A stretch of DNA of 64,000 nt from Chloroflexus aggregans DSM 9485 (GCF_000021945.1 NC_011831.1:1313353-1377352); one strand, 5' to 3'. Numbered from the stretch's first letter, positions 244 to 36,647 are shown. Translations and numbers: made by a program. Notes: generated from the letters alone by a model not told the origin.

Positions 244-1482
244 CTAGGATGGAAGCCGACAGGTATTTTGCAAAGACTCATATAACCGTTTTGCGCACTC
301 TTCAACCCTTTGCGCGCCCTGCGGTTGTTTCCGCTTGCCGGCGTGCATAAGATCGTTGCGCAAATCACCAAGTTGGTTATAAAGATTAATCACTTCTTTC
401 AGTGAGGGAATGGCATTGAGATCAACAGGTATCTCTGCGCCAGTACCGCCCCTCTGAGCTTGGACAGCCTCGCCAAGCATCTGTTCGACCAGTTGACGCT
501 CTGCCTTTTCCAATATATCACTCTTACCAAGTTGTACCATGACCCACGACACCAACCACTCACGAGCCAATGCCACCGCTTGAAAAACCTGACCGCGATC
601 CAGATACCAGCCAACTAAATTCAGTTCGGTTTGCAGTATGCGTAACGGATCGACTTGTTCGGTTTTACCGAGCGCAATTGGGCGAAAATTGTCAATGATC
701 TGCTGAGCTAGCGGCATAAAGGGCACTGCCAGCGTGCCGATCTCGTGTTCGACAGCGGGCAATTGTTGCATAATCTGAGCACTTGCCTGCATTGCATCAG
801 CCGGACGCACGACGCGCAGTGCCTTTGAGACTTTCGTCAGATTCTTCGCTGTTGCTTTAATTGGTGAATTGTTCCAAGCAGCCATTTCATCCTTACTAGC
901 AGTTTTTGGATCGGGCTTGCCCCGATTATGCTGCGTATGCAGCAACGTAGCCAAATCACGCGCATCGCCGAAACGCACAAACAGGTCGGCCCCGACCATC
1001 CAGTCGAGCAATTCGACAAAATTGGTCAGATCAAGCACAGGCGTGCGATGAGGAGTGACACTCTGATCACGCATTTCAAAATTACCGAAGAATACATGTT
1101 TTAGTTGAATGGACTTGACTTTGCGCAAATAGGCAGCGGCGAGGAAGGATAAGAATGGCAGCGAGCGAAAGCCGTGAGTAATATCGAACACAACCGCTGC
1201 GTTCGGTTCAATGACGTCAACCACAGCCTGAAAGATTCGCCACAGTTCAGCATCATCGCGCCCATCAGGGATGCGAACTGCTTGAATGCTCGCAGCTTGC
1301 GCACTGGCAAAATATTGATGGTAGAATTGAGCCGTCAGTTCAGTAGTAAAAACAACGAAATCCAGATCTGGAAGGTACTGAGCCAATGCTAGCCCGAAAA
1401 AGGGCGCAACATGCTCGCAACCATCTGGAAAGACATAGCATGTTTCTTGCGGTCTAGCGCCGAGGAAGGTAATGGCTTTCAT
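244..1482 (-). CDS. csx1: Csx1-family CARF-HEPN effector (DxTHG / TM1812-MJ1666 type)
   Basis: N-terminal ITFLGARPQETCYV, FDITHGFRSLP (DxTHG) and VFFGNFEM motifs typical of Csx1 CARF domains. C-terminal RNDLMH matches the HEPN Rx4-6H motif. It is the last gene of the cas operon. Confidence 0.7.
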   Translation of the reverse strand: MKAITFLGARPQETCYVFPDGCEHVAPFFGLALAQYLPDLDFVVFTTELTAQFYHQYFASAQAASIQAVRIPDGRDDAELWRIFQAVVDVIEPNAAVVFDITHGFRSLPFLSFLAAAYLRKVKSIQLKHVFFGNFEMRDQSVTPHRTPVLDLTNFVELLDWMVGADLFVRFGDARDLATLLHTQHNRGKPDPKTASKDEMAAWNNSPIKATAKNLTKVSKALRVVRPADAMQASAQIMQQLPAVEHEIGTLAVPFMPLAQQIIDNFRPIALGKTEQVDPLRILQTELNLVGWYLDRGQVFQAVALAREWLVSWVMVQLGKSDILEKAERQLVEQMLGEAVQAQRGGTGAEIPVDLNAIPSLKEVINLYNQLGDLRNDLMHAGKRKQPQGAQRVEECAKRLYESLQNTCRLPS

Positions 1483-1490
1483 CGAACACC

Positions 1491-3587
1491 CTACTCCTTC
1501 TCCTTTGTGAGTAACGGCAAACCCTGCTCATCGCCCGGCTCTTCGAGCACGAGATTAGGACCGGCATCGGCCATTTTGTTCGATTTTACCTTATTGGCCA
1601 CAAACCACTCGAAGTTCTTTCCCTCTGGGTCTGGATGAACATCGGTGCGCGGGTAATGGATGGGAAGCGGTGGAACCGGATCGCGCAGCAAGGCGAGGAG
1701 ATCGGTAATATGCGGTAATCGGTCCAATGATTGACCGTAGCATCGCTGCATCGCCTGTGCAAACGCTGCCACCCATTCACTTCGTTTGCCAACCTCAGCT
1801 CGCCGCCACCCCGATTGCTGCAATGAACAATAGCGAGTGCTGAGTTCGAGCAGATCAACCTGATCTACCGTCAACTTAACGCTGCCAAATCCGAGCGGTT
1901 TAGCATAACCGAGCCGGAAAAAGCATTTTTCTTCGCCCAAGCTTAGCGTCCATAGCAACGCACCAAGCTCAACCGGTGCCAGGTTATGAAAATCGATTGT
2001 GAACTGAAATACGTTACCCGGCACACGTACTCCGCGCACCGTGCGATTCTGATGATCGCGACGCTGTCCGGCACGCTCATATTCGAGCCGATTCAGACTA
2101 TTTCCGTGGTGACGGTAGAACTTCCGTCCACGCAACTGATTGGGTCCATCGTAGCCAATGGTGGTTGCAGAGCCTGGTCTCTTGCGCTCCTCCTCACTCC
2201 ATTCGCCGTCTTTCTTGCGCAGGTAGAAAAGCGTGGTGGTCGGTTTGGGTGAACCCAAGACGGCCAACGGCATGGGTTCGGCATATACGCCTTTGTCATC
2301 AATCAATACTGCGTGGCTAAAGCGCACCCGTCCGGCATAGGCAACGCGATCCTTGCGATCCTCGGCTGGCGTGGCGCGTACCCATCCGAATACGCGCGAA
2401 GCAATGTCTAGCCGCTCGTACTCTTCACTCGGCTTCAGGTGCTCAGGGAGCAGATCGCCGATAGAATGGCGATAGCGCAGCCGCGCCACTTTTGCCAGGG
2501 CAATATTGCGCACGGTCTTTTGATCCGGTTCCAGTTCAACGTACACCAAATTGCCCGATGCCAGCCGATCACTCTGCCCCTGGCTGTGAAAATCGTCACG
2601 TCGTTCGTGGAGTTGGGCCTGCAACACCGCGTTAAAGTCGGCTTCGCGCTCGGCATCGAAATGGACGTGCTTGGCTTTGGCCGGAGCACCTTCTTTGAAA
2701 TAAAAGAAACGCTCATTGCGTTTTGTCTCGATAGTGCGGCCGGTTATTTTCACCCACCCCTTAACCAAGGGTTTGTTGTACTTTAGTAAGCGATTTTTAT
2801 CTTGCTCACGCGCAAGTGCTTCCACCTTCTTCACACCATTCTTGGCGGTGCTCAGAACGGCATACGCCGTTTCACCACAACGCCAATCGCCGTGCAAAAC
2901 GTTCAGGTTACGGTCTTCGTGATACGCACCGATTGTCGCCTCCTCGCAGAGGGCAATGACGCCCGGTTGATCACCGTCCGGCAAACTCAGCACGATGCCG
3001 GGTTTAAACCGTTTGGACTCAATCGGGTCGATACGATACTCGAGCCGTTCCTCGCCATTGAAGACACTGAACGGTGAATTGGTCACCGTTTCAAACAAGG
3101 CACGGATCATACCGCGCAGACTCGTAGCAGGTATAGCGTCTTGACCATCATACTGGAAAAAACGGTAGTTTTTATGCTGAACTTCGCGGTTATCGGCCAG
3201 CAGAATAGTAGTCGATTGCACATCGTGGCTATCCGCAATAAAAAGAGGGGTGACCGCTTCGAGGGTGCAGGTGATACGCCCGGTCAAACCCACATACCGG
3301 TCGTGAGGCGGTGGTGGGCAACGGCCCAGCAACTGCGCATCGGGATCGGTTTCCGGTATATCGGGTGGTGGCAAATAGCGGACGAAATTGTATGGGTTGA
3401 GGAAGCGGTAGGCTTCCCGCGCCTTGGTTGACTCTTTGGCACGTGGCCACGGCACCGTCGGTGGCGATGGTTGAACCACCTGCACCGGTGTCTGATGACG
3501 ATCCCGCTTTTCGGGGCGATTGGCCTTGCCTCCGCTTTGATGCATCTGTCCACGCTTTGGTGTCTGTTTGTTTCTGTGCTTCGCCAT
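1491..3587 (-). CDS. Large RAMP-superfamily protein (Cas7/Cas5 group), paralog A, 698 aa
   Basis: Has a YRFLNPYNFVR N-terminal motif, LTGRITCTLEAVTPLFIADS (beta1-like) and a glycine-rich loop IPATSLRGMIRALFE. A C-terminal G-rich segment YAKPLGFGSVKL is present. It shares a clearly paralogous motif set with ORF 4380..6476. Confidence 0.55.
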   Translation of the reverse strand: MAKHRNKQTPKRGQMHQSGGKANRPEKRDRHQTPVQVVQPSPPTVPWPRAKESTKAREAYRFLNPYNFVRYLPPPDIPETDPDAQLLGRCPPPPHDRYVGLTGRITCTLEAVTPLFIADSHDVQSTTILLADNREVQHKNYRFFQYDGQDAIPATSLRGMIRALFETVTNSPFSVFNGEERLEYRIDPIESKRFKPGIVLSLPDGDQPGVIALCEEATIGAYHEDRNLNVLHGDWRCGETAYAVLSTAKNGVKKVEALAREQDKNRLLKYNKPLVKGWVKITGRTIETKRNERFFYFKEGAPAKAKHVHFDAEREADFNAVLQAQLHERRDDFHSQGQSDRLASGNLVYVELEPDQKTVRNIALAKVARLRYRHSIGDLLPEHLKPSEEYERLDIASRVFGWVRATPAEDRKDRVAYAGRVRFSHAVLIDDKGVYAEPMPLAVLGSPKPTTTLFYLRKKDGEWSEEERKRPGSATTIGYDGPNQLRGRKFYRHHGNSLNRLEYERAGQRRDHQNRTVRGVRVPGNVFQFTIDFHNLAPVELGALLWTLSLGEEKCFFRLGYAKPLGFGSVKLTVDQVDLLELSTRYCSLQQSGWRRAEVGKRSEWVAAFAQAMQRCYGQSLDRLPHITDLLALLRDPVPPLPIHYPRTDVHPDPEGKNFEWFVANKVKSNKMADAGPNLVLEEPGDEQGLPLLTKEKE

Positions 3588-3700
3588 CGCGACCTCATTG
3601 GATATGTGCTACGACAGGTCGTGCTTTCAGATCGTTAATCATCAGTTGAAAGATTTGGTGACACGCATCGAGAATATCCTTCGCGGTGCTCATATCCCAT

Positions 3701-3925
3701 TCATTCTCTGCCGGGATACATGGCAATATTTCGCCTTCTCTGTAATTCTTCCAACAACTGCATCAGCTCAGATGGACAGTTCAAAATCGGGATACGGAGC
3801 ACTTCTAACAAGGCGCCCCAATTCCTTCTTTGGGCCTGTTGATGAGTGACTTTAGAATAGTAGGTTCGTAATACCTCTTCAGTAGCGCGGAGCATAAACA
3901 TATGAATAACACTTTGCAGCTTCAT
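3701..3925 (-). CDS. Small hypothetical protein (74 aa) in an AT-rich insert between the RAMP paralogs
   Basis: ORF in the same frame as 3935..4330, separated from it only by a TAA and 3 codons. Local AT-rich composition differs from the flanking cas genes. Confidence 0.3.
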   Translation of the reverse strand: MKLQSVIHMFMLRATEEVLRTYYSKVTHQQAQRRNWGALLEVLRIPILNCPSELMQLLEELQRRRNIAMYPGRE

Positions 3926-3934
3926 AAACGTCGG

Positions 3935-4330
3935 TTAACTCCAGCATCTCCGTATCGACATCAAAAAACATATTGGATCACGGAGCAGATCGATGATCTG
4001 ATCCGTGCAATCCCGCAACGTTACGAACACTCTCCGCCTGTACCCCTCTTCAGACAAAACGTTACGCACATTTCTAGCGATCTGTCGTATCTTTCTGGCA
4101 TCCCTACCTAAAACATCGGAATGATGATCCTTCTCTATGCAATTCAACACCTCGTCTAAGTCAGCACTCAAAACACGCGCAGCTTGAGATAATTCGAGTT
4201 TCTCCAGGTCTTGACGGAGCATTCTTTGTCGATCAACAATGCCAGGTCGATTGGTACGAGAGGGGTAAATCGGTGTTCGGGCAGTGACATTACCCAGAAA
4301 CTCCAGGTTCAAACCAATATACATGAACAT
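3935..4330 (-). CDS. Small hypothetical protein (131 aa), predicted helical; possible Cas11-like small subunit or unrelated accessory
   Basis: Its size and position between RAMP genes resemble Cas11 (Csm2/Cmr5). No diagnostic motif was recognised, and it lies in AT-rich inserted DNA. Confidence 0.3.
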   Translation of the reverse strand: MFMYIGLNLEFLGNVTARTPIYPSRTNRPGIVDRQRMLRQDLEKLELSQAARVLSADLDEVLNCIEKDHHSDVLGRDARKIRQIARNVRNVLSEEGYRRRVFVTLRDCTDQIIDLLRDPICFLMSIRRCWS

Positions 4331-4379
4331 GACCTCCCACAGCGACAGCTCATTGGTTTTCTCTATGGAACTGCCTCAC

Positions 4380-6476
4380 TCACGGGATTATATTGCCATT
4401 TTTATCAATCAGGGGTAAACCCGCCACATCATCCTCCGCCAGTGGCAATGCGATACGCGGTCCGGGATTGTTACCGCCCCGCTTGTTGCCGACAAACCAT
4501 TCGTACTGTTTGCCATCCGGCTGCGGTTGGCGGGTCGGACGCGGATAGTGGACCGGCAGGGGAGGTGTGTCAGCCAGTAATGCCTTGAGGTCGCAGATGT
4601 TTGCCAACATCTCGAAGGCGGCGCCGAAGCGTAACTTCATTGCCTGCTTGAATTCCTTGATCCATGCATCGATTTTTTGCTGATCCTGATCGTGCCAGCC
4701 GCTACTCGTGAACGAGGCGTATCGCGCTTCAGGGTGCAGCAAGGAAATCTTCACGATGTCAATTTTCGCCGAGCCAAAACCCAGCGGTTTGGCGTAGCCG
4801 ATGCGGTGATGCCATCCTTCGATCTGCAAACTCCAGAGCAGTGCGCCAAGCTCCAGCGGCGCCAGGTTCTCGAAATCCACAGTGAACTCAAAGATGCTGC
4901 CCGCCTGCTGAACGCCACGCACCGTGCGGTTCTGATCGCTCTTCACACCGTTAACACTCCGGTATTCCTGCGGATTGAGCCGCGCGCCATGATGCCGATA
5001 GATCTTGCGCCCGCGCAGGATCTGATTCTGGTTGTTGTAATCTACTTGTCTATCGTCTTGTCCATTTTGTGGTTTGCCGGTGCGTGGACGCAAATAGAAG
5101 CGATAGGTGGTCGGCTTGGGTGTAGACAAAATAGCCAGAGTTTCATCAAACGTTCCGCCATCTTTGGTCAATACGGCATGGCTGAAGCTAACGCGCCCGG
5201 CATACGCCGTTCGTACTGACAGTTCTGGAGGATTAACGGCAGTTTCGTCACCCCACACCCACCCAAACACCCGACACGCAGGGCAGAGCGCATCGTAAGT
5301 CGCGCATTTCTTCAGGTCAGACGGGTACAGCAGATCGCCGATGGTGCGCTCGAAGCCGACACGCGGCACCGAGACGGGCACAATGAATCGCACCTTGTAT
5401 CCACTGTTGCCAACTTTGTCGAGCATGGCATAGACCAGATCACCATCTGTTAGTTTTTGGCGGCCTTCGACAATAAAACGGCTGAAGGCCGGCTCTGTGC
5501 CCTGCGGACGATTTGGATCCCGCCGTTTGCGCACCTCATCGCGGTGACGCTCTTGATAGTCGGCGATCAGTTCTTCGTACTTCTGCCGCACCGTGTCAGG
5601 CAAATCAAGCGGAGAGAGCTTCTGATTGGTGAAGAACAGTCGCTCATCGTGTTTATTCTCAATGTTCTGATTGGTAATACAGAGATACCCGCTCACCTTT
5701 AGCTGATTAGCACCGGGCTCCGGCAGTGATTGAGCCGATTTTGCCAGATGCACCACATTCCAGAACTTGAAATTGCGGCGCGGATGGATCATACGCTCGA
5801 TAATCGCGTGACACAACTCACCATGCGCAAAGCCGGTCAGCGAGAGTTTTTGACGCTGGGCGTAAGGTTTACTGAGCGACTGAGCGACCGTTTTGCTCTT
5901 CTGCAACGGATCGTACACATGCACCCATGCAGCGTACTGCGGACCGGCAGGTCGTTGGCCGGGTGTGATCGTTGTTGTTCCGGGTAACAACTCCAATTCC
6001 CACCGCGTGTTGATTTTGCGCACCCGCGCTGGAACCAGTTGCAGCGCCAGCTCTGGCAACAGGTGATAACTTAATCGCTTATCGCCGGCAAAGTGGGCAA
6101 AGCAGGAATTGGTCGCTGCTTCAAAGATGGCGCGGATTGCACCGCGCAGACTCGTACCGGGAATAGCGACCTTGTTCTCCGGATCGCGAAAGAAGCGATA
6201 GTGACGATGTATCTTGCCGTTGACGTGCTCTTCGCGCACGTTCTCACCATCCGCGACAAAGATCGGGGTGGTAGCGGTGAGCCGGCAATAGATGCGTCCG
6301 GTCAACCCTACATACCGATCATGGGGCGGCGGTGCGCAACGGCCCAGCAATCGAGCAATGTGCGCATTGCGCGTTTCCAGCGTGCGCACGAAGTTGTATG
6401 GGTTGAGAAAGCGGTATCCTTGTGCAGATGAGGTACCGCTCGATATAGACCGGCGTTGGGTTTTAGATTTGCTCAT
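4380..6476 (-). CDS. Large RAMP-superfamily protein, paralog B, 698 aa
   Basis: Has YRFLNPYNFVR, LGRCAPPPHDRYVGLTGRIYC, the G-rich loop IPGTSLRGAIRAIFEA and a C-terminal YAKPLGFGSAKI. It is the same length as paralog A, and its start overlaps the upstream gene's stop (ATGA). Confidence 0.55.
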   Translation of the reverse strand: MSKSKTQRRSISSGTSSAQGYRFLNPYNFVRTLETRNAHIARLLGRCAPPPHDRYVGLTGRIYCRLTATTPIFVADGENVREEHVNGKIHRHYRFFRDPENKVAIPGTSLRGAIRAIFEAATNSCFAHFAGDKRLSYHLLPELALQLVPARVRKINTRWELELLPGTTTITPGQRPAGPQYAAWVHVYDPLQKSKTVAQSLSKPYAQRQKLSLTGFAHGELCHAIIERMIHPRRNFKFWNVVHLAKSAQSLPEPGANQLKVSGYLCITNQNIENKHDERLFFTNQKLSPLDLPDTVRQKYEELIADYQERHRDEVRKRRDPNRPQGTEPAFSRFIVEGRQKLTDGDLVYAMLDKVGNSGYKVRFIVPVSVPRVGFERTIGDLLYPSDLKKCATYDALCPACRVFGWVWGDETAVNPPELSVRTAYAGRVSFSHAVLTKDGGTFDETLAILSTPKPTTYRFYLRPRTGKPQNGQDDRQVDYNNQNQILRGRKIYRHHGARLNPQEYRSVNGVKSDQNRTVRGVQQAGSIFEFTVDFENLAPLELGALLWSLQIEGWHHRIGYAKPLGFGSAKIDIVKISLLHPEARYASFTSSGWHDQDQQKIDAWIKEFKQAMKLRFGAAFEMLANICDLKALLADTPPLPVHYPRPTRQPQPDGKQYEWFVGNKRGGNNPGPRIALPLAEDDVAGLPLIDKNGNIIP

Positions 6477-7063
6477 TGTGTCTCCACCTTATCTGGCCTG
6501 TCACTTAATGCCCGATACCAGACAAACGCCGTGCGCCCCTGTTCGGTGTAGCGCCAGAAATGCAAGTAGACGCGACCAGTTGCATTCAGAGGATACGCCA
6601 GGATAGCTGCTGCAACCCGGTCTTCGAACCAGCGCGGCTGATGATCTTTACGCTCGCCCCATAGCATGACCGACTCCGCGTAGCGGCGAAGCTGACAGTC
6701 AGGATGTTCCTTCCAGAAGTCCCTGGCACCGAAACTCGTGAACGACACTGATGTGCCAATGTAATGCCACAACCAGCGGTTGCCATCGCGTCGCAGCGAA
6801 AGATGACCAAGCTCACCGAAGATCTCGGCACGCTCGAGGAACTCTGGCTGCGTCGGCAGATCGGCAAACTCGATATGGCTGACGTGCTCCCAGATGCGGT
6901 AGGGCATCGCCTGCCAATGCCCTTGCCACGCAGTGAGGAAGGCTTGCAGTTGATCAGGCATACACTCGCCACCCAAAATGGCTGGGCGATCTGAGTTGCT
7001 CAGATTCGCCTTCTGCATCTTTTCGTACAGTTGGGTAAAAAAGTCGTTGCTTTCGTCGCTCAT
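6473..7063 (-). CDS. Hypothetical Trp-rich protein (196 aa) embedded in the cas operon
   Basis: It has 4-nt overlaps with both neighbours, which implies translational coupling. No recognisable motif was found. Confidence 0.4.
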   Translation of the reverse strand: MSDESNDFFTQLYEKMQKANLSNSDRPAILGGECMPDQLQAFLTAWQGHWQAMPYRIWEHVSHIEFADLPTQPEFLERAEIFGELGHLSLRRDGNRWLWHYIGTSVSFTSFGARDFWKEHPDCQLRRYAESVMLWGERKDHQPRWFEDRVAAAILAYPLNATGRVYLHFWRYTEQGRTAFVWYRALSDRPDKVETQ

Positions 7064-8853
7064 GACACCCTCGCCGGATAGAGATCAGGCAACCATGTGC
7101 CGTTGATTTTATCGAAGTAGCTGTCTTTCTTCAAACCGAAGGCATGTTTATATTCCTTGACCGTCACATTGAACGCTCTGATCCAGCTCTCTACCAGTGT
7201 CCTCCAATCGTTCTCTGTTGCCGGATCAAGCATCAACGTGCGATAGACGCCGCTCATCCCGCCTTTCGATTGCAAAAGTTGCTGTTTAGCGGTAATCGCC
7301 TGCTGCGCGGCCGGCTCCTGGTTATTCGGCTCAGACAGCGGAAAATCGCTTTCGTGAATAATACCGAGAGTCACAGCACCGTCTTCGATCCTGCACTGAC
7401 CAAAACCTTTGGCAGCGCCGAAGCCAATAGTGATCAACCCATCGTGCAGATCGCGCAACACCAGCGCCAGCCAACCCAATTCCCACGGCTCTGGATTCTC
7501 AAGGAAGAGCCGCACCCGAAACTTCGGCTGCCACAGCACCACCGCGTCGAACTTGGCCGTATCGCGTCCGCCGCCGGTAAAGCGGTCGATAGCCAGAAAA
7601 TCGAGCACCTTGAGAGTGACCTTGTCGCCGACAAATGGTGCATCTTCGACGCGCAACCGACTGCCGTTCCACGGGCTGCCGAAGAGCCGGCAGGCGAGAC
7701 AGAGTTTCTCCTCTGCCCCTTTTTGCTCCAACGTATCTCGTTCAACCTTTGGTCGAGCCTTGATAAAGCTGTTACAACTTGCAACCGGGTCATCGGTCTT
7801 GGTCGTCAGCGGATTACAGGCGGGGCATGTCGCTAAGAATGACGTTTTGCGACTCTTCATATCCTTACCGTTATCCCACGCGCTGAAGGTTGCCAGAGTA
7901 CGGGCGATCCGCTCGGCCTGACTCCGCAAGGCGCCGCGCAGGCTCGAACCGGGCAACACCGGCTTAGCCCCTTGCTCATAAGCCGCGAACACCGGCGCAT
8001 GATCAAACCCGCTCCGACCGGCTTGAGCCACATCGTTGGTCAGAAAGGGACCGGTTGCGGCCAGTGTAAATTCGGCCAAAACCCATGAACGGGCAACCGG
8101 ATCATTACCTTGGTACGGTTCTACCCACGCCCGCACCTGCTGGACCTGATTGGTCAGCCATGTGCGGTCGCCGTCAGTAGTGTGCCAAGGCGGCCCGCGG
8201 TGTAAAAACTCGATCAGCACCCCTGCCTGATTCAGATCGCGCTCGATCCACTGCACCTCGTTGAGGGTAAACGCACCCAACCCCCGATTGACCCGACCAC
8301 CGATTGCGCCTCGTCCCTGTTCCCATTCGGCCAACGTCGCCGCCAATAAGGGCAGCAGTTTCGGCACATCAGGCAGTTTGGGATCGATCTCAAGCCTCAG
8401 AGTAAATACCGTCCCTGCCGGCAACACTTCGTAATCGAACTTAATCCGTTCGCGGCGCGCAGCCGCACCGGTCACCCGATCAATCCCAACGCCATCGCGG
8501 ATGGTCAGCGATGGGATCGTATCGAGCACGGCATCGTAGACCAGCACCCGGGTAGCAGTGGCGGTATCACTATCTTCCCTTGGATTCACATCGCCGAAGA
8601 GTTGACAGACGAGGCATTGACAGGCGTCGTTTGACGATTGGTTGTCAATCACTTGACACGGACTTTCCCCAAAGCGAGGCGCGAGCCGCGTGGCAATGCT
8701 GCGCAGCACACCGGCGATAGCGGTACCCGGTATGAGCAGCCGCCCCCGCACGTCACGGCGCAAGAGATCGTCGGTCGTTTCCGTATCGCTGCCCGTGCCC
8801 ACGTGAAGCGCTGTACGCAGCGTTAGATTGGCAGTGATGGCACGAAACTTCAT
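7060..8853 (-). CDS. Fusion of two Csm3/Cmr4-like Cas7 domains (Cas7-Cas7), 597 aa
   Basis: Domain 1 has LHVGTGSD, LLIPGTAIAGVLRS, a CQCLVCQLFG zinc knuckle, GIDRVTGAA and GGRVNRGLGAF. Domain 2 has LPGSSLRGALRS, CPACNP...CLACRLFGSPW, AIDRFTGGGRD and IGFGAAKGFG. Both look like complete Cas7 units. Confidence 0.7.
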   Translation of the reverse strand: MKFRAITANLTLRTALHVGTGSDTETTDDLLRRDVRGRLLIPGTAIAGVLRSIATRLAPRFGESPCQVIDNQSSNDACQCLVCQLFGDVNPREDSDTATATRVLVYDAVLDTIPSLTIRDGVGIDRVTGAAARRERIKFDYEVLPAGTVFTLRLEIDPKLPDVPKLLPLLAATLAEWEQGRGAIGGRVNRGLGAFTLNEVQWIERDLNQAGVLIEFLHRGPPWHTTDGDRTWLTNQVQQVRAWVEPYQGNDPVARSWVLAEFTLAATGPFLTNDVAQAGRSGFDHAPVFAAYEQGAKPVLPGSSLRGALRSQAERIARTLATFSAWDNGKDMKSRKTSFLATCPACNPLTTKTDDPVASCNSFIKARPKVERDTLEQKGAEEKLCLACRLFGSPWNGSRLRVEDAPFVGDKVTLKVLDFLAIDRFTGGGRDTAKFDAVVLWQPKFRVRLFLENPEPWELGWLALVLRDLHDGLITIGFGAAKGFGQCRIEDGAVTLGIIHESDFPLSEPNNQEPAAQQAITAKQQLLQSKGGMSGVYRTLMLDPATENDWRTLVESWIRAFNVTVKEYKHAFGLKKDSYFDKINGTWLPDLYPARVS

Positions 8854-8856
8854 CGG

Positions 8857-11193
8857 CTATCTCCTCTCTTCAGCCTTCTGGCGGGCAGGCGCAGCGATCC
8901 GGGCAGCCAGCATCTGCAAGCCGATCTGCAAGCCGATGCGCCATGCCAGCGGATTGTGGTCCAACTTGTGTGACTTGAGTTTATCTACCAACGCATCCAG
9001 CAGCTTATCGATCACATCCATACCGCGCTTCCCGTCAGCCGTGAAGAAATTCGGTTTGTCGCGGCCGGACAACGATTTGCCGAGGAGGTTCTCTGCATTC
9101 CCTGACCGTTGTAAATCCTGCTTGATGGCATCAACCGAGGTGTGCTGAGAAACATGTAACAGCCGAGCAATCGTCTCAAAACGCCCATCGTTGAAACAAG
9201 CGAAGGATGTTGCTTCCGCTTCGAGCTTTTCCTCCCACTCGCGGGTGAAAGCAAGCACGGCCACAAACGGGGGCGACTGCTCGGCAGACGCCATCTGCAA
9301 CGGGGTGAGATCGAGCATCGGACTGGTGATCCCTTGAAGTTGACGGTAGACCGGATGATTGAACGCAACACGACCGAAGCCCTCATTGCGGCGGAGACCG
9401 ATACCCTGCGCCTCTACCTCCCCCAGACGCTGTCGCAGGTCATCCAACGGGATTCCCTTGAAACTCAGGCGTACACTGGAACCGGCAACGATGGCAATAT
9501 CTCGCGCGCGCGGCAACCCTAACGTGGCATTGAAGGAGTCCACCGTCCGCACCGCTGAAAACGCCAGCGCCTCGCCATTCTGGTTGCAATCAATCGAGAC
9601 TGCTGCGCCATTCGGCAACTGCAACTCGCGCTTTAGCCATGCGGTATCGAACCCACGCCAGAAACGTCCCCACGGATCGACGATAATCGCATCACTCAAC
9701 AATAGCATCGTGACATGCTCCGTTGACGTGAGGCGTCCTGTGAGTGACTGCAAGCTGAACAGCGGTTCGTCGATTTTCTGAAACACGGCGCTGACTTTAC
9801 CATAGCCGCGTTGGGTGGCTTTACCGAGGTGCAGTTCGTTTACCGCTCCATTTGGTTGAAGATTGGCCATGCTCTGTAAAAGGTCCCAGACCGTTTGATC
9901 GGTACAGGTTACCTCACCGACAAAATACTGACCCGGCTCTAAAGCTACGTATCCGTACAGATCGCCGGTACGCACCCGCCCACTGTCAGGATCGATGCGA
10001 ATGTGCATTTCCACCATTGTGGACGGTTTGTGCTTGGAACGCGGCATACCACTGACTAATGAAATAAACCCTTCCAAGCTTGTTAACTGGCCGGTACGCT
10101 TACATCGCGGGCATTCCTCTGGCGCACTCGGATCGAACAGACTCCAGACTCCATGGCCTTTATCTCGGCTAGGATCGGCATGCCCCGGATGCAATTCACA
10201 CGTTAGCAGATCGCGCGGGGCAATTATAGTGGGATAACCATTAGCTTTCTGAAACACTTCTACCGGGGTCAACATCGAGAAGCGCACTGTATCACGGTAG
10301 AACAGATCGACAAAATCTTGGTATACCGACCCCTGAAGTTGCTTTCCCAGATGCTTCGCCGCACGCCACGCCAGCGCGCCGCGCAGCACACTGCCGGGAA
10401 TGATGTCGAGCGTCTCGTACTGATTACCGGCTTCGACCCGACGAGCGATCAGTAACGGTTCGTCAAGCCGCATGAGAACGCGCAAGCGATAGGTATGATG
10501 GTTGGGATAGGGGGGCAACTGAAGCGGACTGATGTTGATTGCGCCGGCAGGCAAGGCGGGTTCTGCGACTTGTTCATCTCTTAACCGCTTGGCCAATCGA
10601 TCCAGAATCGCGGTTTCCTGCGCTCGATCAACAAGATGAATCTCGCACTCACCATAGCCACGCCGCTTCCCGGCGCCAAGATTACGCAGCATACGTGCAG
10701 CGGCGACGAGCCATTCAGCCTCGCGCTGCGCATCGGCATCATCATTCTGGCACTCGGCCACGAAGCGGAAGTGCAAGCTGCCATCACCCTCCTCACGGGT
10801 GAACAGTTTATTTTTCTCGGCCCGACGTGTGCGAGGATTAACCCGCACGCGCGTTGTGATCTGCGCCGCCGTTTCGCCCGCACTCCACACGTCCGATGGC
10901 ACGAGCGGTGTCATCATACCCGCAGGTCGTGCAGAAGAGATACGCCAACGCTTTTGGCGGGCGGGCGAACCGAAGATCGTATCCACCACATGGTGATTGG
11001 ACGCGAACACTTGCAGTGTCAGCAGGTTGGTTAAACTTTCGCGCAGGAGACCGGCCAGCACCGTGCCGCGGATTACCGGTACGCCGTCGGCATCGCGGAG
11101 TAGGGCCGAGTCAACTTGCAGACCGAGACCATAACCGGCGCCGATGTGGTAATCGCTCTTGAACTCGATCTCGAATTCGAGACGGATACTCAT
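8857..11193 (-). CDS. RAMP fusion protein (778 aa): N-terminal Csm5/Cmr6-like Cas7 domain, second Cas5 (Csm4/Cmr3)-like domain, helical C-terminal extension
   Basis: Domain 1 has DYHIGAGYG, VIRGTVLAGLLRE, IFGSP and LGAGKRRGYGE. Domain 2 has IIPGSVLRGALAWR, VRFSMLTP (resembling the Csm4 'fS.a.P' motif), an ECPRCKR zinc motif and GIGLRRNEGFGRV. The last roughly 150 aa are predicted helical and could be a fused Cas11. The gene is adjacent to cas10. Confidence 0.5.
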   Translation of the reverse strand: MSIRLEFEIEFKSDYHIGAGYGLGLQVDSALLRDADGVPVIRGTVLAGLLRESLTNLLTLQVFASNHHVVDTIFGSPARQKRWRISSARPAGMMTPLVPSDVWSAGETAAQITTRVRVNPRTRRAEKNKLFTREEGDGSLHFRFVAECQNDDADAQREAEWLVAAARMLRNLGAGKRRGYGECEIHLVDRAQETAILDRLAKRLRDEQVAEPALPAGAINISPLQLPPYPNHHTYRLRVLMRLDEPLLIARRVEAGNQYETLDIIPGSVLRGALAWRAAKHLGKQLQGSVYQDFVDLFYRDTVRFSMLTPVEVFQKANGYPTIIAPRDLLTCELHPGHADPSRDKGHGVWSLFDPSAPEECPRCKRTGQLTSLEGFISLVSGMPRSKHKPSTMVEMHIRIDPDSGRVRTGDLYGYVALEPGQYFVGEVTCTDQTVWDLLQSMANLQPNGAVNELHLGKATQRGYGKVSAVFQKIDEPLFSLQSLTGRLTSTEHVTMLLLSDAIIVDPWGRFWRGFDTAWLKRELQLPNGAAVSIDCNQNGEALAFSAVRTVDSFNATLGLPRARDIAIVAGSSVRLSFKGIPLDDLRQRLGEVEAQGIGLRRNEGFGRVAFNHPVYRQLQGITSPMLDLTPLQMASAEQSPPFVAVLAFTREWEEKLEAEATSFACFNDGRFETIARLLHVSQHTSVDAIKQDLQRSGNAENLLGKSLSGRDKPNFFTADGKRGMDVIDKLLDALVDKLKSHKLDHNPLAWRIGLQIGLQMLAARIAAPARQKAEERR

Positions 11194-12818
11194 GCCTCGT
11201 CCTCCTGCGGTTCATAATCGTCGGGGTTATGACTCAACTCCTGCGCAAACTCCCAAACTTCCAGCAGATCGAGCATGCCGTGAACGACCACATCGCGGTT
11301 ATCGCGCGTGATACTGCGCCAATAGTGAGCGCCATTCCCGTCGTTCTTGGGCTTGCCCAGCACCGCAAGCGCATCGACTACCGCCGAACGTGAAGCTGCA
11401 CTCAATCGCTCCAAAATCCATTCGAGCCGATGCTGCGTCCACCGTTCTAAGTTTTGGGTACGCTGCTGCACAGGAATATCCGTCTGCACCTCGGCAAAAC
11501 AACGGCGCAATTCGGCCAGACGCTTCCGGGGAAGATCTTTCAGGGCATAGCGCTGCGCCAGCAGATGCTTGAGGTCGATCCCGCGCAGCAAGGCGTCTTT
11601 CGAGAGATCGTGCTCTGCGACCCAATACGGACGTAACGAGCGCCGGATGACCTGATCACCGTCTGCCTCGGCCATACCCGCCAACCGATTGCCCAAAATG
11701 ACCTCGAAATTGACCGCCGATAGATGCCCGTTCGTCTTGGCAGCCAGCAATTTGCTCTGGCGCTTGGCATCCTCCAGCAAAGCTTCGGCCCGGCGATGGG
11801 CCAGTGCATACGGATAGGTACGCTTGCAAATCACCACTGCTGCGGCAATCGTCGGGCGAGGCACATTGTGCAGACCTATCTTATTTACCAGCATCTGCAT
11901 ACGCTCTTCCCATTCGAGGCAGAAGCGACGGGCAATATCGAGCGCATACGACGCCGGCACAAGTGCAAAGAGATCATCACCACCGAGAATGAGCGGGAGC
12001 ATCGGCATCATCGTCGCCTGTGCCGGAACTTGCTTGCGGAACTCAATCATCGGAACGGCCAGACTCTCACTCAGCACCGTTGATAGACCTTGCGAAAGGT
12101 TCTGGAGCTGCCCCTGGTCACAATTGCCGAATAATTGACCCATACCGTTGCCGTCGGCCACCAAATAGGCTACGTAGTTTCGTTTACTCAGGTCAAAAAC
12201 GGCAATGGCATCGGCGTCTTCGGGCCAATCGGGTTCAATGTGGGCAGGAATTGCCGCTTTCTTAGCATAAGGATCGTACACTCCACCAAGGAATTCGCGC
12301 AGACCACGATCACGCTCAGTTGCTTTGATCTGACAGGTCGCACACAGATACCTGTGGCGGGAATCGTTCCTTCCCGCCAGCCGATCACGCCGTTCCGCCA
12401 ACCCCACGCCACACGACTCGCAGAATGCGACATACGGCATATGCACTTCGGCTACTACTCCCTGCCGATGACTCTTCGCCCAGCGCAACTTTGTACCGGC
12501 TTCATCATTGGCCGTGCGGAAATCACTGTTCATCGCTACAGGCTCAGCAACTGTCAGACTGCCACCCAACGCCAGCCGGTAGCGTTCAGCCAGATCGGCG
12601 CCGAAAGCAACCGCGTCATTTCGATCGTCAAAGATCACCCGAAAACTACCACCATCGTTGACCACAACCTGACCGTTGTACTGCTTCGCCAAGGTATCTT
12701 CGACGCTACGGCAGAAGCGAGTCAGCAACTGACTCGCCCCAACCACTTCGCGCAAGCGCGAAGAGCGAAAGATGAAATCCTGAATCTTATCGGCCTCGGC
12801 GGCCAAGAGGTAGGGCAT
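11190..12818 (-). CDS. cas10: Cas10 (minimal, no HD domain; cyclase GGDD intact)
   Basis: The N-terminal ADKIQDFIF motif is a palm-domain hallmark. CESCGVGLAE...RYLCATCQ is a treble-clef zinc finger. ILGGDDLFALV is the GGDD cyclase motif. At 542 aa it is too short to carry an HD nuclease domain. Confidence 0.75.
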   Translation of the reverse strand: MPYLLAAEADKIQDFIFRSSRLREVVGASQLLTRFCRSVEDTLAKQYNGQVVVNDGGSFRVIFDDRNDAVAFGADLAERYRLALGGSLTVAEPVAMNSDFRTANDEAGTKLRWAKSHRQGVVAEVHMPYVAFCESCGVGLAERRDRLAGRNDSRHRYLCATCQIKATERDRGLREFLGGVYDPYAKKAAIPAHIEPDWPEDADAIAVFDLSKRNYVAYLVADGNGMGQLFGNCDQGQLQNLSQGLSTVLSESLAVPMIEFRKQVPAQATMMPMLPLILGGDDLFALVPASYALDIARRFCLEWEERMQMLVNKIGLHNVPRPTIAAAVVICKRTYPYALAHRRAEALLEDAKRQSKLLAAKTNGHLSAVNFEVILGNRLAGMAEADGDQVIRRSLRPYWVAEHDLSKDALLRGIDLKHLLAQRYALKDLPRKRLAELRRCFAEVQTDIPVQQRTQNLERWTQHRLEWILERLSAASRSAVVDALAVLGKPKNDGNGAHYWRSITRDNRDVVVHGMLDLLEVWEFAQELSHNPDDYEPQEDEA

Positions 12819-12836: not shown

Positions 12837-14570
12837 TTATTGGCGCAGACCCGGCGGTAGGAATGTCAGATCGCATACCTCAACCAAACGCGACCACGAA
12901 GGTGCTGCGACTCGCTCTTTCCTTCCTGTAGCAACAGCAACCGTACCTGGATAGAAATACTCTAACCAGTTTTGGATAAACTCATCCACAGCAGCCTTTA
13001 CCCACTCCAACGCGGCCTCGGCAACAGAACGAGGAAGGTGCAGATGGGTATGAATGGCTTCACCGCGCAGTTTGGTGAAACCCTGATAATTCTTGTGAGA
13101 AAAATCGAGCGCTTTGCCGTTCCAATACTTACTGAGTGAAGGGCAGCCCGACGCAATTTCTACTTTTCCAATCTGTCGCAGGTCAAGCGGATCGCCTCCC
13201 ACCAATACCCCTCGCATTGCCCTAGCCCCACTGTGATCGGCGAGAAGTTTGAAACCTTTGATCTGATCGGCATTAGATAAATTACTCACTTTGCTCGTTG
13301 ACCCGCTATTGTCCTTCAGGACGAGGCTATCTTTGAGCCAGGCAATACATAGCCGCGCCTTCAAGAGAAACTCGTCCAGAGCGGCCGCCCGCAAATACGC
13401 CGAACGGTAATCTTCATTCTTCGTAATCAACCGCTCGTTCTTCGCCAGCTCATCGCTCACATACGCCAGCAGCGGTTCTGGTCGGGCAAACAGCGAATGA
13501 GTAGGGGCGGGATCGCCATGTTTCAACTTCAGATGTTCATCCAGCAACTGCTGCGCCGCAGCGGTTGCGGTCGTTGCTGCGGACACATTGGGCCAAATCG
13601 GACCTAAGACATCAATGCTCCACGGCACCACATCATCGGGCAACGGTGGATTGAAGCGATCGCGCATCTGCTTAGCAACGGCGTAATTGCCGTTTTCCCA
13701 CTCTTCATACATTCTGAGCAACTCGGCCAAACGCTGTACCTTCTCCAGATCACACGGCTCAAACAGCGACTCACCATCGGCAGTAACGTCCAGAGTTTGC
13801 GACATCGCGCCGAGGATACCACTCCCCTGACGATCGGGGCTGTGCTTCGTCCCCAACAAAACCAGTGCATTGCGGAAGCTGTAGCTTTCGTACAACCGTC
13901 GCACCTGCTCCCAGTCGCGCAGGTGGAAGGCTGCGTAGGGGTTGGCAACGGTGCCAATGCGACAGGTAAAGCCATAGGGCCGGTGCCAATCACGGTCATA
14001 CTCATCAAAATCGACATAGGTGATCGGCAGACCCGAATGAGCCGCGTAGAGAAATGCGCCCACCACCATACTCTTCTTAGCGCCGGTAATGTCTACGACG
14101 TTGGTGTAACCTGCCGGAGGTTGGGCTTCCTGTTTTTGGAACGCTTTGCAGAGAGTGCGGAAAACGTGGGTAGGCGTATCTTTGGGCAGTTCGATCAGGT
14201 CAAAACTATTGTCCGCCAAGTCGGGACGGAACTGTTCAGGGAGGGGAGCCTGCTTCAGGCTCAGCATATACTGCTTAAGCAGCGTACCATGATCGACGCC
14301 CGGCATCCCGCTATACGATGTATTCAATACCAACACCACCCGCTGCGGCTTCAACACGCAAACAACCTGCAACAACGGCTCAAACGACTCGCCGACGGTC
14401 AGCGCTAAGGTATGCACGGGCCGGTCAACACCGCGTAGCCGATCAGGTTCTTGAGCAGCTATCTTAAGTTCGCAACCCAGCAATTGCTTAATATAATCCT
14501 CATAGTCACGTTTATTCCAGTATTTGCGCGTCTGTTCCCTCAAATTGTCAACATCACACTTGCCACCCAT
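12837..14570 (-). CDS. csm6: Csm6-like CARF-HEPN protein (577 aa)
   Basis: The CARF Rossmann core is HTLALTVGESFEPLLQVVCVLKP...VVLVLNT plus VVDITGAKKSMVVG (DxTGxK type). C-terminal RGEAIH matches Rx4H HEPN. It is the first gene of the operon. Confidence 0.55.
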   Translation of the reverse strand: MGGKCDVDNLREQTRKYWNKRDYEDYIKQLLGCELKIAAQEPDRLRGVDRPVHTLALTVGESFEPLLQVVCVLKPQRVVLVLNTSYSGMPGVDHGTLLKQYMLSLKQAPLPEQFRPDLADNSFDLIELPKDTPTHVFRTLCKAFQKQEAQPPAGYTNVVDITGAKKSMVVGAFLYAAHSGLPITYVDFDEYDRDWHRPYGFTCRIGTVANPYAAFHLRDWEQVRRLYESYSFRNALVLLGTKHSPDRQGSGILGAMSQTLDVTADGESLFEPCDLEKVQRLAELLRMYEEWENGNYAVAKQMRDRFNPPLPDDVVPWSIDVLGPIWPNVSAATTATAAAQQLLDEHLKLKHGDPAPTHSLFARPEPLLAYVSDELAKNERLITKNEDYRSAYLRAAALDEFLLKARLCIAWLKDSLVLKDNSGSTSKVSNLSNADQIKGFKLLADHSGARAMRGVLVGGDPLDLRQIGKVEIASGCPSLSKYWNGKALDFSHKNYQGFTKLRGEAIHTHLHLPRSVAEAALEWVKAAVDEFIQNWLEYFYPGTVAVATGRKERVAAPSWSRLVEVCDLTFLPPGLRQ

Positions 14571-14723: not shown

Positions 14724-15590
14724 CTACACTCCCTCAATAAACATAGCAAAATGATCGCGGATGAAGCGATAGTCGAGTGGTTCGCTGTTCGAAAGTTCCC
14801 ATGCGTTGCGGCACTCGGCCAGGATGGCGGTCTTGTGCGTGTTGACCGTGCTGAGCGAGATCGATAGACGCTCGGCGACCTGGTCGGGGCGAAAGCCCTG
14901 CGCAAAGGCACGAAGTACGTCGCGTTCGCGCGGACTGAGCCGGTCCCAGACTTGACGGCAGCGTGGATCGTCAACCGCAGTGAGTTGGCGTAGGTAAGAA
15001 GGAAGCGATGTCTGTTGGGTGAGTACCCGTAGTCCGGGGAAAAAAGCACCCCACGGCTTGAGAGGAACCGCGATGAGACGCACACCATCGGCGGGCGAGA
15101 CGTGCATCTGCGCACCGTCTTTGACTCGTGCTAGCGTCGCTTCAGGGGTGTGCATGTGCCATAAGCGGTCACTGAAATCGCCGTAGATGGAGATAACTGA
15201 GGTTACCAGTAAGGCCAGCATTCGCCGTCCACCGCTGATGCAGAGGTGCAACCGGCGGCCTTCGGTTTTGAGATTGGTGATAAGGTCGCGGATGGTGGCG
15301 AAGGCGGCATCGGCATCGGCTTCGGTACGGATGTCGTCGAGTTCAATGCCGTTGCGGGTAATCGGTACGTGTCGGAGCCGACAGCGTTGACCGGCGTAGT
15401 AGTCGTCAACGAATTCGGCTTGCAGCCTTTGCCAGGCTTGTCGGATGCGCGGATTGGCCAATGAGAGGTGCAAGATATAGACTTCGTTGATGGCTTCACC
15501 TTGGGCGAGCAGGGCGTCGAGGGCGAAGGTGATCACTTGGGGCTGACCACCAAGGGTTGCGATCAGTGTTGTCGAGTGAGATGTTGTCAT
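14724..15590 (-). CDS. Transcriptional regulator: N-terminal CARF/Csa3-like Rossmann domain plus C-terminal LuxR/GerE HTH
   Basis: Has TLIATLGGQPQVITFALDALLAQGEAINEVYILHLS (Csa3/CARF-like) and C-terminal LSPRERDVLRAFAQGF...LSISLSTVNTHKTAIL (LuxR HTH). The ORF track extends upstream to 15935, but that part reads through the promoter. The likely start is MTTSHS at about 15590, with an alternative at about 15629. Confidence 0.5.
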   Translation of the reverse strand: MTTSHSTTLIATLGGQPQVITFALDALLAQGEAINEVYILHLSLANPRIRQAWQRLQAEFVDDYYAGQRCRLRHVPITRNGIELDDIRTEADADAAFATIRDLITNLKTEGRRLHLCISGGRRMLALLVTSVISIYGDFSDRLWHMHTPEATLARVKDGAQMHVSPADGVRLIAVPLKPWGAFFPGLRVLTQQTSLPSYLRQLTAVDDPRCRQVWDRLSPRERDVLRAFAQGFRPDQVAERLSISLSTVNTHKTAILAECRNAWELSNSEPLDYRFIRDHFAMFIEGV

Positions 15591-15613: not shown

Positions 15614-15628
15614 TGCTATATGATAGCA
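15614..15628. promoter_or_regulatory. Inverted repeat TGCTAT-ATG-ATAGCA in the divergent promoter region; candidate operator
   Basis: Perfect 6-bp arms with a 3-bp spacer lie between the divergently transcribed CARF-HTH regulator and the P-loop/Csx3-like gene. Confidence 0.3.
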
Positions 15629-15671
15629 TGTTCACAATGTTTATCACAATATTCTGATCTCGTTTGAAGGA

Positions 15672-16829
15672 GTGAACGTTGTGGCCTCGTCGTCTACCTT
15701 TCCTGCTGTTATGATCGGTGGTCCTCCGCACAGCGGTAAGTCGGTGTTGGTGTATGCGTTGTCGCGTGCGCTGCGTGCAGCAAATACGACCCACTATGTG
15801 TTGCGGGCTTGTCCTGATGGCGAGGGCGATTGGAGCCATGAGACGCCGGAGGAGCGGGTACGGTTGTTGCGACAGAAGGGCCGGTTTAGCAGTGAATTTG
15901 TCGAGCGAGTACGCTGTGCTATTGAGCGTCGCCACTTGCCGTTGTTAGTTGATGTGGGTGGTAAGCCGACGCTTGAGCAAGAGCAGATCTTGCGCGCATG
16001 CACCCATGCGGTGTTGCTGGCAGCTACGCCAGAAGGTTTGGCCGAATGGCGCGAACGAGCCGAGCGGTGTGGGTTGATCATTATCGCCGAATTGCAGTCG
16101 GTATTGCATGACGAAGATCGGGTTGATGAAAAAACACCGGTGTTGCGCGGCGTCATTAGTAAGCTGGAGCGGCAACATCCGCCTCATGGTTTGATGGTGC
16201 AAACATTAAGCGAACGGTTACGGCATCTGTTCGCGTTCTCGCCGGAAGAGCTGAAGGAACGGCTGTTTCCAAGAGCGCCTACGGAGTTTATTGTCGATCT
16301 TGATCGACTTGCTCGCTCTGCCGGGACTACACATTGGCAGCCGTCTGATCTTTCCCGCATCTTACGTGAGATCCCGCTCACAACGTGTTCAATCTACGAG
16401 CGCGGTCCGAATTGGTTGTATGCAGCGCTGGCTTTGCACATTGCACCGGAACCGGTGTTTCTGTTTAACCCGCTCTTAGGTTGGGTTCGTCCGCCGTCAG
16501 TAGTGCCCGGCGAACAGCCATCAGACTTGCTGCAATGGAAACTGCAAACCACACCCACCTTTACGTGGATCGAAGCCAATCCTACCCAAGCCTACCTCGA
16601 CTATGACGAGATGCAGCAGTTGGTTGCACCGGCTCTCGATCCGCAGCGCGGTGTCGTGCTCAGTGGAAAGCTACCGCACTGGTTGTTGATCGGTCTTGCC
16701 CTCGCCTATCGCCAGCATCCGTGGATCGCAGTAGTGCAAGCTCAACAGTACGACAACGGTGTGGTGGTGTGGAGTCGCGATCCGCAGTACCCAATCGGGT
16801 CACTGGTGCCGCTCTCGTCTTTCCCTTAA
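15672..16829 (+). CDS. P-loop NTPase fused to two Csx3/Crn3-like (cyclic-oligoadenylate ring-nuclease-like) repeats
   Basis: N-terminal Walker A MIGGPPHSGKSVL. Two C-terminal segments (GPNWLYAALALHIAPEPVFLFNPLLGWV and GKLPHWLLIGLALAYRQHPWIAVVQAQQYDNGVVVW) resemble the Csx3 core recalled as 'LP.WL.aALAlh....vAVy.prlg.vvv'. This is recalled from memory and not profile-verified. Confidence 0.4.
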   Translation: MNVVASSSTFPAVMIGGPPHSGKSVLVYALSRALRAANTTHYVLRACPDGEGDWSHETPEERVRLLRQKGRFSSEFVERVRCAIERRHLPLLVDVGGKPTLEQEQILRACTHAVLLAATPEGLAEWRERAERCGLIIIAELQSVLHDEDRVDEKTPVLRGVISKLERQHPPHGLMVQTLSERLRHLFAFSPEELKERLFPRAPTEFIVDLDRLARSAGTTHWQPSDLSRILREIPLTTCSIYERGPNWLYAALALHIAPEPVFLFNPLLGWVRPPSVVPGEQPSDLLQWKLQTTPTFTWIEANPTQAYLDYDEMQQLVAPALDPQRGVVLSGKLPHWLLIGLALAYRQHPWIAVVQAQQYDNGVVVWSRDPQYPIGSLVPLSSFP

Positions 16830-25785: not shown

Positions 25786-25877
25786 GCGATCCGTTAATCC
25801 TAGCCCATGTAGATATTCAACAATATTAAGTATATCAGAGGCAAGTAATCTTGTAAAGTCATGAGACGCAACGACGC

Positions 25878-25946
25878 TCACGCAAAGGACGTTAACGCAA
25901 AGACCGCAGAGGGCGCAAAGGCGCAAAGAGGTTAACGCAAAGGCGC
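25878..25946. repeat. Copy A of a dispersed repeat with ACGCAAAG(G/A) motifs at about 11-bp periodicity
   Basis: About 85% identical to 51243..51310. It lies in the 5' region of marR. Confidence 0.5.
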
Positions 25947-25951
25947 TATGG

Positions 25952-32683: not shown

Positions 32684-32692
32684 GAGTTATTT

Positions 32693-33232: not shown

Positions 33233-33245
33233 TTGGAGGGATAAC

Positions 33246-36638: not shown

Positions 36639-36647
36639 GAGGAAAAA

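Follow-up and report, generated by a model that had tools for sequence, protein, structure and literature searches.

Gene and domain organisation

The stretch of the Chloroflexus aggregans DSM 9485 genome analysed here (64,000 nucleotides (nt), NC_011831.1:1313353-1377352; the window) carries, beside a type III CRISPR effector module, a gene whose product joins an N-terminal P-loop nucleoside triphosphatase (NTPase) domain to a Csx3-like unit (unit A) and then a Csx3 unit (unit B). Neither unit retains the metal-binding histidines of the ring nuclease Crn3/Csx3, and the protein may instead act as a sensor of cyclic oligoadenylate (cOA) that controls its own NTPase.

The longest open reading frame (ORF; 15672-16829, plus strand) begins at GTG 15672 and encodes 385 residues, and this frame sets the residue numbering throughout. 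We favour GTG 15681, three codons (9 nt) further on, as the likelier start because of its Shine-Dalgarno spacing (GAAGGAG, 8 nt upstream) and the public annotation. The 382-residue product is identical to ACL23989.1 / WP_012616353.1 / UniProt B8G732 of the same strain. RefSeq labels WP_012616353.1 'CRISPR-associated protein Csx3', and the PADLOC profile PDLC01059 ('C3a67 AAA-Csx3') matches it from end to end (residues 5-379 against profile positions 2-380 of 382; E = 2.4e-205, 680 bits). The protein is an ordinary member of the catalogued, uncharacterised type III CRISPR accessory family AAA-Csx3 (C3a67), from the same genus as the family representative. The gene itself was already known and annotated and is not a discovery; nor is the NTPase-first order new, as the initial annotation had supposed. 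Shah et al. (RNA Biol 2018/19) list the family as cluster 67, 'C3a67 AAA-Csx3', NTPase first and type III-associated, with Caur_2269 from Chloroflexus as its representative (PMC6546367). Their description comprises one table row and one sentence (an 'AAA' plus a 'Csx3', in the opposite order to cluster 35; PMC6546367).

The gene and its domains are laid out as follows.

15681..16829, plus strand: coding sequence of the AAA-Csx3 (C3a67) protein, in the annotated 382-residue form from GTG 15681
15699..16241, plus strand, residues ~10-190: P-loop NTPase domain with a SIMIBI-like (MinD/ParA/BioD/GPN-loop) fold, assigned by fold similarity
15717..15743, plus strand, residues 16-24: Walker A motif (P-loop) GGPPHSGKS, invariant in homologues
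15813..15833, plus strand, residues 48-54: PDGEGDW loop, a signature motif of its NTPase family, invariant and in a flexible, low-confidence stretch of the model
15942..15962, plus strand, residues 91-97: Walker B-like strand LLVDVGG with a DxGG motif, from conservation and the model
16257..16523, plus strand, residues ~196-284: Csx3-like unit A, truncated and divergent, with YERGPNW (residues 242-248) and FNPLLGW (residues 265-271)
16524..16826, plus strand, residues ~285-385: Csx3 unit B, complete fold with catalytic residues replaced; SGK at residues 331-333, QAQ at residues 356-358 in place of D-P-R

The full-length model has a predicted local distance difference test score (pLDDT) of 87.8 and a predicted template modelling score (pTM) of 0.83, and therefore implies a defined arrangement of the three domains. 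In the initial annotation, two Csx3-like units came after a P-loop NTPase within one chain. The Walker A motif and both Csx3-like segments (GPNWLYAALALHIAP..VFLFNPLLGWV at residues 245-272 and GKLPHWLLIGLALAYRQHPWIAVVQAQ..GVVVW at residues 332-367) are all present in this ORF, and domain, profile and fold evidence agree with the order it proposed.

Two unlike Csx3 units in one chain

Unit B is a complete Csx3 fold, because Pfam Cas_csx3 matches residues 306-379 (E = 7e-17; 61 bits against a cut-off of 21) and phmmer aligns residues 312-358 without gaps to AfCsx3. Profile and fold thus both bear out the assignment of the C-terminal half to Csx3.

Unit A is less conspicuous. Pfam finds no match in the middle segment alone, and BLASTP of the two halves against each other aligns no more than 16 residues (E = 0.015), which would not by itself suffice. 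TIGR02579 matches unit A at E = 0.023. Aligned locally with hhalign, the unit A and unit B profiles share a G-x-x-P-x-W-L...L-A-L core (P = 2.7e-4); the global mode is uninformative (probability 1%). When the unit A profile is searched against all PDB sequences, the top hits are the five AfCsx3 sequences, the best of them at E = 1.1e-4 (profile positions 3-83 against chain residues 3-85), and the next hit is the cA4 (cyclic tetra-adenylate) receptor Cat1. Foldseek places AfCsx3 chains at 12 of the 13 top positions for unit A (probability 0.82-1.0, template modelling (TM) score ~0.45); further down, the probability never exceeds 0.15. Unit A and Csx3 are homologous, but unit A is truncated and divergent, and its N-terminal beta-hairpin appears to be missing. 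The duplication claimed by the initial annotation holds in that two homologous units are present, while the word 'repeats' overstates how alike they are.

Neither unit keeps the Crn3 metal site

AfCsx3 binds cA4 on its 'D69 face' (S44, G45, R46, I49, D69 and R71) and also needs the 'H60 face' of a second dimer, with H57, H60, H80 and Mn2+ (PMC7371418). The H60A and D69A variants are each inactive, and H57, H60 and H80 are described as absolutely conserved (PMC7371418). We mapped these positions onto both units through HMMER alignments and counted them in 41 aligned homologues and 80 species-level loci; the H80 equivalent was located by hand, at non-histidine positions.

Across the family, unit A (consensus YGRGPNW...FDPRLGW) preserves most of the ligand face: R244, equivalent to R46, and the equivalent of W50 are each present in 80/80 loci, and D266 and R268, equivalent to D69 and R71, are each present in 79/80. 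The position of G45 is conserved in 70/80. These R46, D69 and R71 equivalents make ligand binding across the family likely. At the H57 position unit A carries L, V or A, and at the H60 position A, Y or L. Unit B keeps S-G-K and P-x-W, has Q at the D69 position in 71/80 loci and Q (53/80) or P at the R71 position, and places L or R at H57 and mostly R at H60. A conserved histidine equivalent to H57, H60 or H80 is found in neither unit across the 80 loci. As judged from these alignments, the metal site is in neither unit, and the D-x-R dyad is family-wide in unit A only.

The C. aggregans protein itself is an outlier in unit A, with E243 for G45, N266 for D69 and L268 for R71. Comparable residues occur only in a 96%-identical relative (P0001; N and L) and in one further locus (L073; T and L). 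In unit B, Q356 and Q358 occupy the D69 and R71 positions, and the H57/H60 positions are taken by L255/A258 (unit A) and L344/R347 (unit B). The NCBIfam equivalog cut-off of TIGR02579 is also missed (37.5 against 55.4 bits). By the residues that matter in AfCsx3, the C. aggregans protein should not be an active Crn3, because the Mn-site histidines are absent from both units and D69 and R71 are substituted. The 'ring-nuclease' label of the initial annotation does not survive this comparison: H57, H60 and H80 have no conserved equivalents in either unit, and the D69 and R71 equivalents are replaced in this protein.

A SIMIBI-like NTPase mislabelled 'AAA'

The NTPase motifs GGPPHSGKS, HYVLRACPDGEGDW, RHLPLLVDVGG-P and CTH are invariant. 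Walker A residues G16, G17, P18, P19, H20, G22, K23 and S24 are the same in 41/41 aligned homologues, with K23 and S24 kept in 80/80 loci. PDGEGDW is likewise invariant in the aligned homologues (D49 and E51 in 80/80 loci); it overlaps residues 49-69, where pLDDT is below 50 and the chain is probably mobile. D94, G96 and G97 of the DxGG motif are present in 80/80 loci, and the predicted strand at residues 91-94 adjoins the P-loop strand in the full-length model. From these invariant motifs, and from the fusion of the same NTPase family to a single Csx3-like unit in cyanobacteria, we take the NTPase to be functional and linked to Csx3.

Pfam offers only AAA_16 for this domain, below threshold, and a true AAA+ (ASCE) ATPase is ruled out on fold. 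The domain shows MinD/ParA-type SIMIBI fold similarity, a class that includes MinD, ParA, FleN, NifH, BioD and the GPN-loop GTPases. The signature lysine of the deviant Walker A motif (KGGxxGK[ST]) is absent, with IGGPPHSGKS placing P18 at the signature position; the NKxD motif is also absent, and there is no profile-level membership in any named SIMIBI family. On the model, the 'AAA' label is misleading, the predicted fold being that of a SIMIBI-like switch or kinase.

H20, H41, C47, H88, C110 and H112 of the NTPase domain are also invariant across the Chloroflexota family, and the cyanobacterial homologue Slr7080 matches H112 only. In the model, H41, H88, C110 and H112 are placed at the N-termini of neighbouring parallel strands and could form a putative metal site.

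Family distribution

A word-indexed search with 90% clustering yields 1146 homologues; full length is retained in more than 1100, well beyond what chance would give. The best 120 are all ~380-400 residues long; nearly all come from Chloroflexota, and NCBI or JGI names many of them 'Csx3'. Scanning one genome per species finds a relative in 281 genomes. An exhaustive hidden Markov model search with the tandem A+B profile recovers 614 cluster representatives, 122 of them at E <= 1e-30. Among the best 150 of the 614, the tandem is one contiguous match at about residues 190-385 of ~380-400-residue proteins, or a fragment, and fusion of the tandem to other effectors, of the kind known for CARF and SAVED, is not seen apart from rare exceptions. 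In the same 150, two proteins bear a C-terminal NUDIX extension (P0146, a single ORF of 586 residues at L088:374-2134, and P0150); the other additions are a receiver domain in P0131 and one protein of 2094 residues without another recognisable domain.

The type III locus and its CARF-helix-turn-helix partner

The genes and sites next to the AAA-Csx3 gene all lie on the opposite strand.

14724..15590, minus strand: fusion of CARF (Cas_NE0113 / CARF3 clade) and a LuxR/GerE helix-turn-helix (HTH), 288 residues, ATG at 15590, divergent from the AAA-Csx3 gene
15620..15649, minus strand: promoter-like site from a consensus scan, TTGTGA, 18-nt spacer, TG-n-TATCAT (extended -10)
12837..14570, minus strand: CARF-HEPN protein (Csx1/Csm6-type, CARF1 clade), candidate cOA-activated RNase (PADLOC CARF1--CARF_HEPN, E = 7e-226)
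244..12818, minus strand: type III-D-like effector module, from family assignments and PADLOC
244-1482, minus strand: second CARF-HEPN Csx1, from PADLOC/family assignment

The CARF-HTH protein is identified by Pfam Cas_NE0113 (E = 4e-49) and GerE (E = 1e-10) and by PADLOC CARF3--CARF (E = 4e-145). Searching related loci by tblastn with the window's neighbours recovers a homologue of it in 77/80, and the three misses fall at contig ends. It is immediately divergent from the AAA-Csx3 gene in 72 of those loci, at a median intergenic distance of 90 bp, and the C. aggregans intergenic region also measures 90 bp. The pair adjoins III-D-like modules (Roseiflexus castenholzii, Caldilinea) and a III-B Cmr module. 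This pairing is the strongest contextual signal, a fixed two-gene module regardless of type III subtype.

The promoter-like site, which lies in the intergenic region shared by the two genes, probably drives the CARF-HTH gene. A ATGATAGCAT core is conserved among Chloroflexus-clade loci and not family-wide; considered as an operator of the LuxR-type partner, it fits an extended -10 promoter element better. Across 73 intergenic regions (the 72 loci and the window), no family-wide motif emerges as a common operator for this partner.

From 12818 downwards, the effector module encodes a short Cas10, Csx10, a fused Csx7 RAMP, Csx19, two TIGR03986 RAMPs and the CARF-HEPN Csx1. The divergent AAA-Csx3/CARF-LuxR pair heads this operon. 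These genes, at 244-12818, agree with the view of the initial annotation that the AAA-Csx3 gene is accessory to a type III locus. Cas10 has an intact GGDD motif at residue 279 and no HD domain, and the two TIGR03986 (Cas7-11-like) RAMP paralogues, of 698 residues each, are 39% identical. The CARF-HEPN protein at 12837-14570 also gives a weak NCBIfam match to TIGR02710. The setting is of the cOA type, because a GGDD Cas10, two CARF-HEPN effectors and the CARF3-HTH gene occur together. Despite this effector module and its three CARF genes, Tandem Repeats Finder and a direct-repeat search find no CRISPR array in the 64-kb window; the array or arrays and the genes for adaptation must be in other parts of the genome.

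Two small minus-strand ORFs (3935-4330, 131 residues; 3701-3925, 74 residues) are inserted between the TIGR03986 RAMP genes (window positions 3588-4379), and neither has a Pfam match.

A proposed cOA sensor coupled to an NTPase switch

We give about an even chance to the reading that the protein is a single-chain cOA sensor driving an NTPase switch, and not a Crn3-type ring nuclease. Units A and B would pack as an intramolecular, asymmetric pseudo-dimer, by analogy with SAVED, and this pseudo-dimer would be a single-chain receptor for cOA, most likely cA4. That it binds one cOA ring is plausible on the same analogy, and the hidden second unit would then let each chain form its own ligand receptor. 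In most members, the ligand face would be built from R244/D266/R268 of unit A (AfCsx3 R46/D69/R71) and S331/G332/K333 of unit B. The Csx3 module would sense or hold the ligand without Crn3-like cleavage, because both units are without the Mn-binding His57, His60 and His80.

Ligand binding would in turn control the NTPase. SIMIBI NTPases usually function by dimerising in a nucleotide-dependent manner, and the likely route would be one in which the ligand promotes or blocks this dimerisation, echoing the cA4 sandwich between two Csx3 dimers. These parallel properties of SIMIBI NTPases and Csx3 make such coupling attractive. Together with the CARF-HTH partner, the output would influence how the type III response is expressed or reset. 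Allosteric control of the AAA-Csx3 ATPase by cOA has been proposed before, by Shah et al. (PMC6546367).

Several points weigh against such a sensor. Among the best 150 of the 614 cluster representatives, the tandem is essentially always on one NTPase and so does not move between proteins as a freely shuffled sensor cassette would. Because unit A is shortened (64-82 residues align; TM ~0.45), it may not form a Csx3-type dimer interface. Three of its ligand-face residues are substituted in the C. aggregans protein, and this copy may bind ligand weakly, bind a different ligand or work independently of ligand. Metal-independent ring nucleases exist (CARF-type Crn1, Csm6), and, to judge from them, loss of the histidines would still be compatible with slow cleavage. 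As related in a passage of one paper that cites Shah et al., deletion of slr7080, which encodes a cyanobacterial relative, left plasmid interference unaffected (PMC9676260).

The P-loop domain could alternatively be a nucleotide-modifying enzyme of the kinase/ligase type, for instance one that adds phosphate to linear oligoadenylate products or that synthesises or recycles a secondary signal, with the tandem Csx3 as substrate binder and not as allosteric sensor. We consider this unlikely. In the Fig. 1 legend of PMC7371418, the White lab did use the name 'kinase/transferase' for the domain in cyanobacteria, the invariant PDGEGDW lies in a flexible loop, where kinases bind substrate, and the sub-clade with an extra C-terminal NUDIX hydrolase domain hints at processing of nucleotide derivatives; against this, no lid or NMP-binding domain is identified and no kinase family profile reaches significance.

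We give little credence to a working Crn3-type ring nuclease that would shut off the two CARF-HEPN RNases while the NTPase did no more than modulate its activity. The Pfam match above threshold, the RefSeq name and the D69/R71 equivalents kept by unit A in 79/80 species all speak for it, as do the two Csx1/Csm6-type effectors in a locus where a further classical ring nuclease is absent; of the genes next to csx3, csx1 and csm6 occur most often (PMC8284326). Both units lack the histidines, however, H60A being enough to kill AfCsx3 activity (PMC7371418), the C. aggregans D69/R71 positions read N/L in unit A and Q/Q in unit B, and the TIGR02579 equivalog cut-off is not reached. The CARF3/NE0113 partner, moreover, resembles Csx14, a protein that has been placed with the Crn1 family (PMC12409355), and might itself serve as ring nuclease of the locus.

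It is improbable that the C. aggregans gene is in decay or has been re-purposed, with loss of the ligand site and of any part in cOA signalling: the changes G45 to E243, D69 to N266 and R71 to L268 do cluster in one site otherwise conserved in 79-80/80 loci (70/80 at G45) and are approached only in L073 and the 96%-identical P0001, but the reading frame is undamaged and runs its full length, the motifs of the NTPase and of unit B are all preserved, and the gene keeps its conserved position beside the CARF-HTH gene and a complete type III module.

For the cOA-sensing NTPase switch, the candidate residues are R244/D266/R268, K333/Q356/Q358 and K23/D94, and the candidate partner is the CARF-LuxR protein; the Chloroflexota AAA-Csx3 family now has a concrete, testable anatomy. 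The missing residues, the second unit, the fold and the CARF-LuxR adjacency (77/80) argue against automatic annotation as 'ring nuclease Crn3/Csx3'. Only tentatively do we suggest the wider claim, which seems to us somewhat doubtful, that AAA-Csx3 is a distinct class of cOA receptor: a tandem Csx3 pseudo-dimer without ring-nuclease chemistry would couple cA4 to a SIMIBI dimerisation switch, in a fixed circuit with a CARF-LuxR protein controlling or resetting type III expression.

Elsewhere in the window

A low-GC island at 31319-38000 (GC 0.39-0.46, against ~0.55-0.58 in the flanks) encodes an SPFH/Band-7 protein (31319-32683), a small membrane-like protein, a 930-residue HerA/FtsK-like P-loop ATPase (33246-36038) and a 199-residue protein without a family match. 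The island has the appearance of a horizontal acquisition and may represent a defence or mobile element.

A perfect 48-bp tandem repeat of 2.4 copies (25955-26069) occupies the 5' end of a MarR-family regulator ORF (25285-26049, minus strand); it would add a repeated 16-residue N-terminal segment to the regulator, or may mark a mis-called start. A 56-nt direct repeat occurs in three copies at 38973-39148; the second and third have 91% and 66% identity to the first, and the copies partly overlap and look intergenic.

Comparison with known systems

The closest known system is Shah cluster 67, which is the same family: genus, domain order and type III association agree, and there is no difference in kind. 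Its published description is silent on four points: a second Csx3-like unit, an NTPase of SIMIBI-like type, the loss of catalytic residues and the obligate CARF-HTH neighbour. In the literature searched, the second Csx3-like unit is not mentioned, though it may stand in the Makarova 2020 CARF classification or the Shah supplements; nor did that search find the 'AAA' fold class, the pattern of lost and retained residues or the CARF-LuxR pairing, or a functional study of AAA-Csx3, tandem Csx3, a Csx3 ATPase with cA4, or the CARF-LuxR protein.

The cyanobacterial Csx3-AAA / Csx3' proteins (Shah cluster 35; Slr7080 on pSYSA) share the motifs GxPxxGKS, RACPDGEGxW, D[VT]GG and [CS]THA with the C. 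aggregans NTPase, RACPDGEGxW being present in Slr7080 and in the Nostoc homologue. In a tblastn search against plasmids, NTPase residues 6-186 are homologous to these proteins at 31-38% identity (E = 2e-17 to 8e-11), and the PADLOC profile PDLC01045 'Csx3-AAA' matches the NTPase through profile positions 107-284 (E = 2e-46). The cyanobacterial proteins have the opposite order, with a single Csx3-like unit first, and span 310-324 residues (310 in Slr7080, whose NTPase lies at about residues 112-305). Judging from the two loci compared, L081:3389-6600 (Synechocystis pSYSA) and L082 (Nostoc pNPM1), their genes likewise stand beside a type III module and diverge from a gene for a ligand-sensing regulator; that partner is a WYL-WCX protein (TIGR03985), not CARF-LuxR, and is followed by an HD_4 (RelA/SpoT-type HD) protein.

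With Crn3/Csx3 (PF09620 / TIGR02579), the C. aggregans protein shares the fold and the domain-level profile match. AfCsx3 (AF_1864; PDB 3WZI, 6YUD) is a 110-residue homodimer that stacks head to tail with cA4 sandwiched between dimers, the Crn3 reaction being a Mn-dependent cleavage of cA4 to A2-P, whereas here two unlike Csx3 units lie in one chain fused to an NTPase. SAVED (Cap4, Cap5, CalpL, SAVED-CHAT) is a fused CARF-like pair and resembles the tandem by analogy only, since both units of the tandem are of the Csx3 branch, one of them (unit A) truncated; the SAVED profile does not match the C. aggregans protein. If the proposal is true, AAA-Csx3 would be a cOA-regulated NTPase switch, neither a degradative effector nor a ring nuclease, and thereby the counterpart of SAVED on the Csx3 branch.

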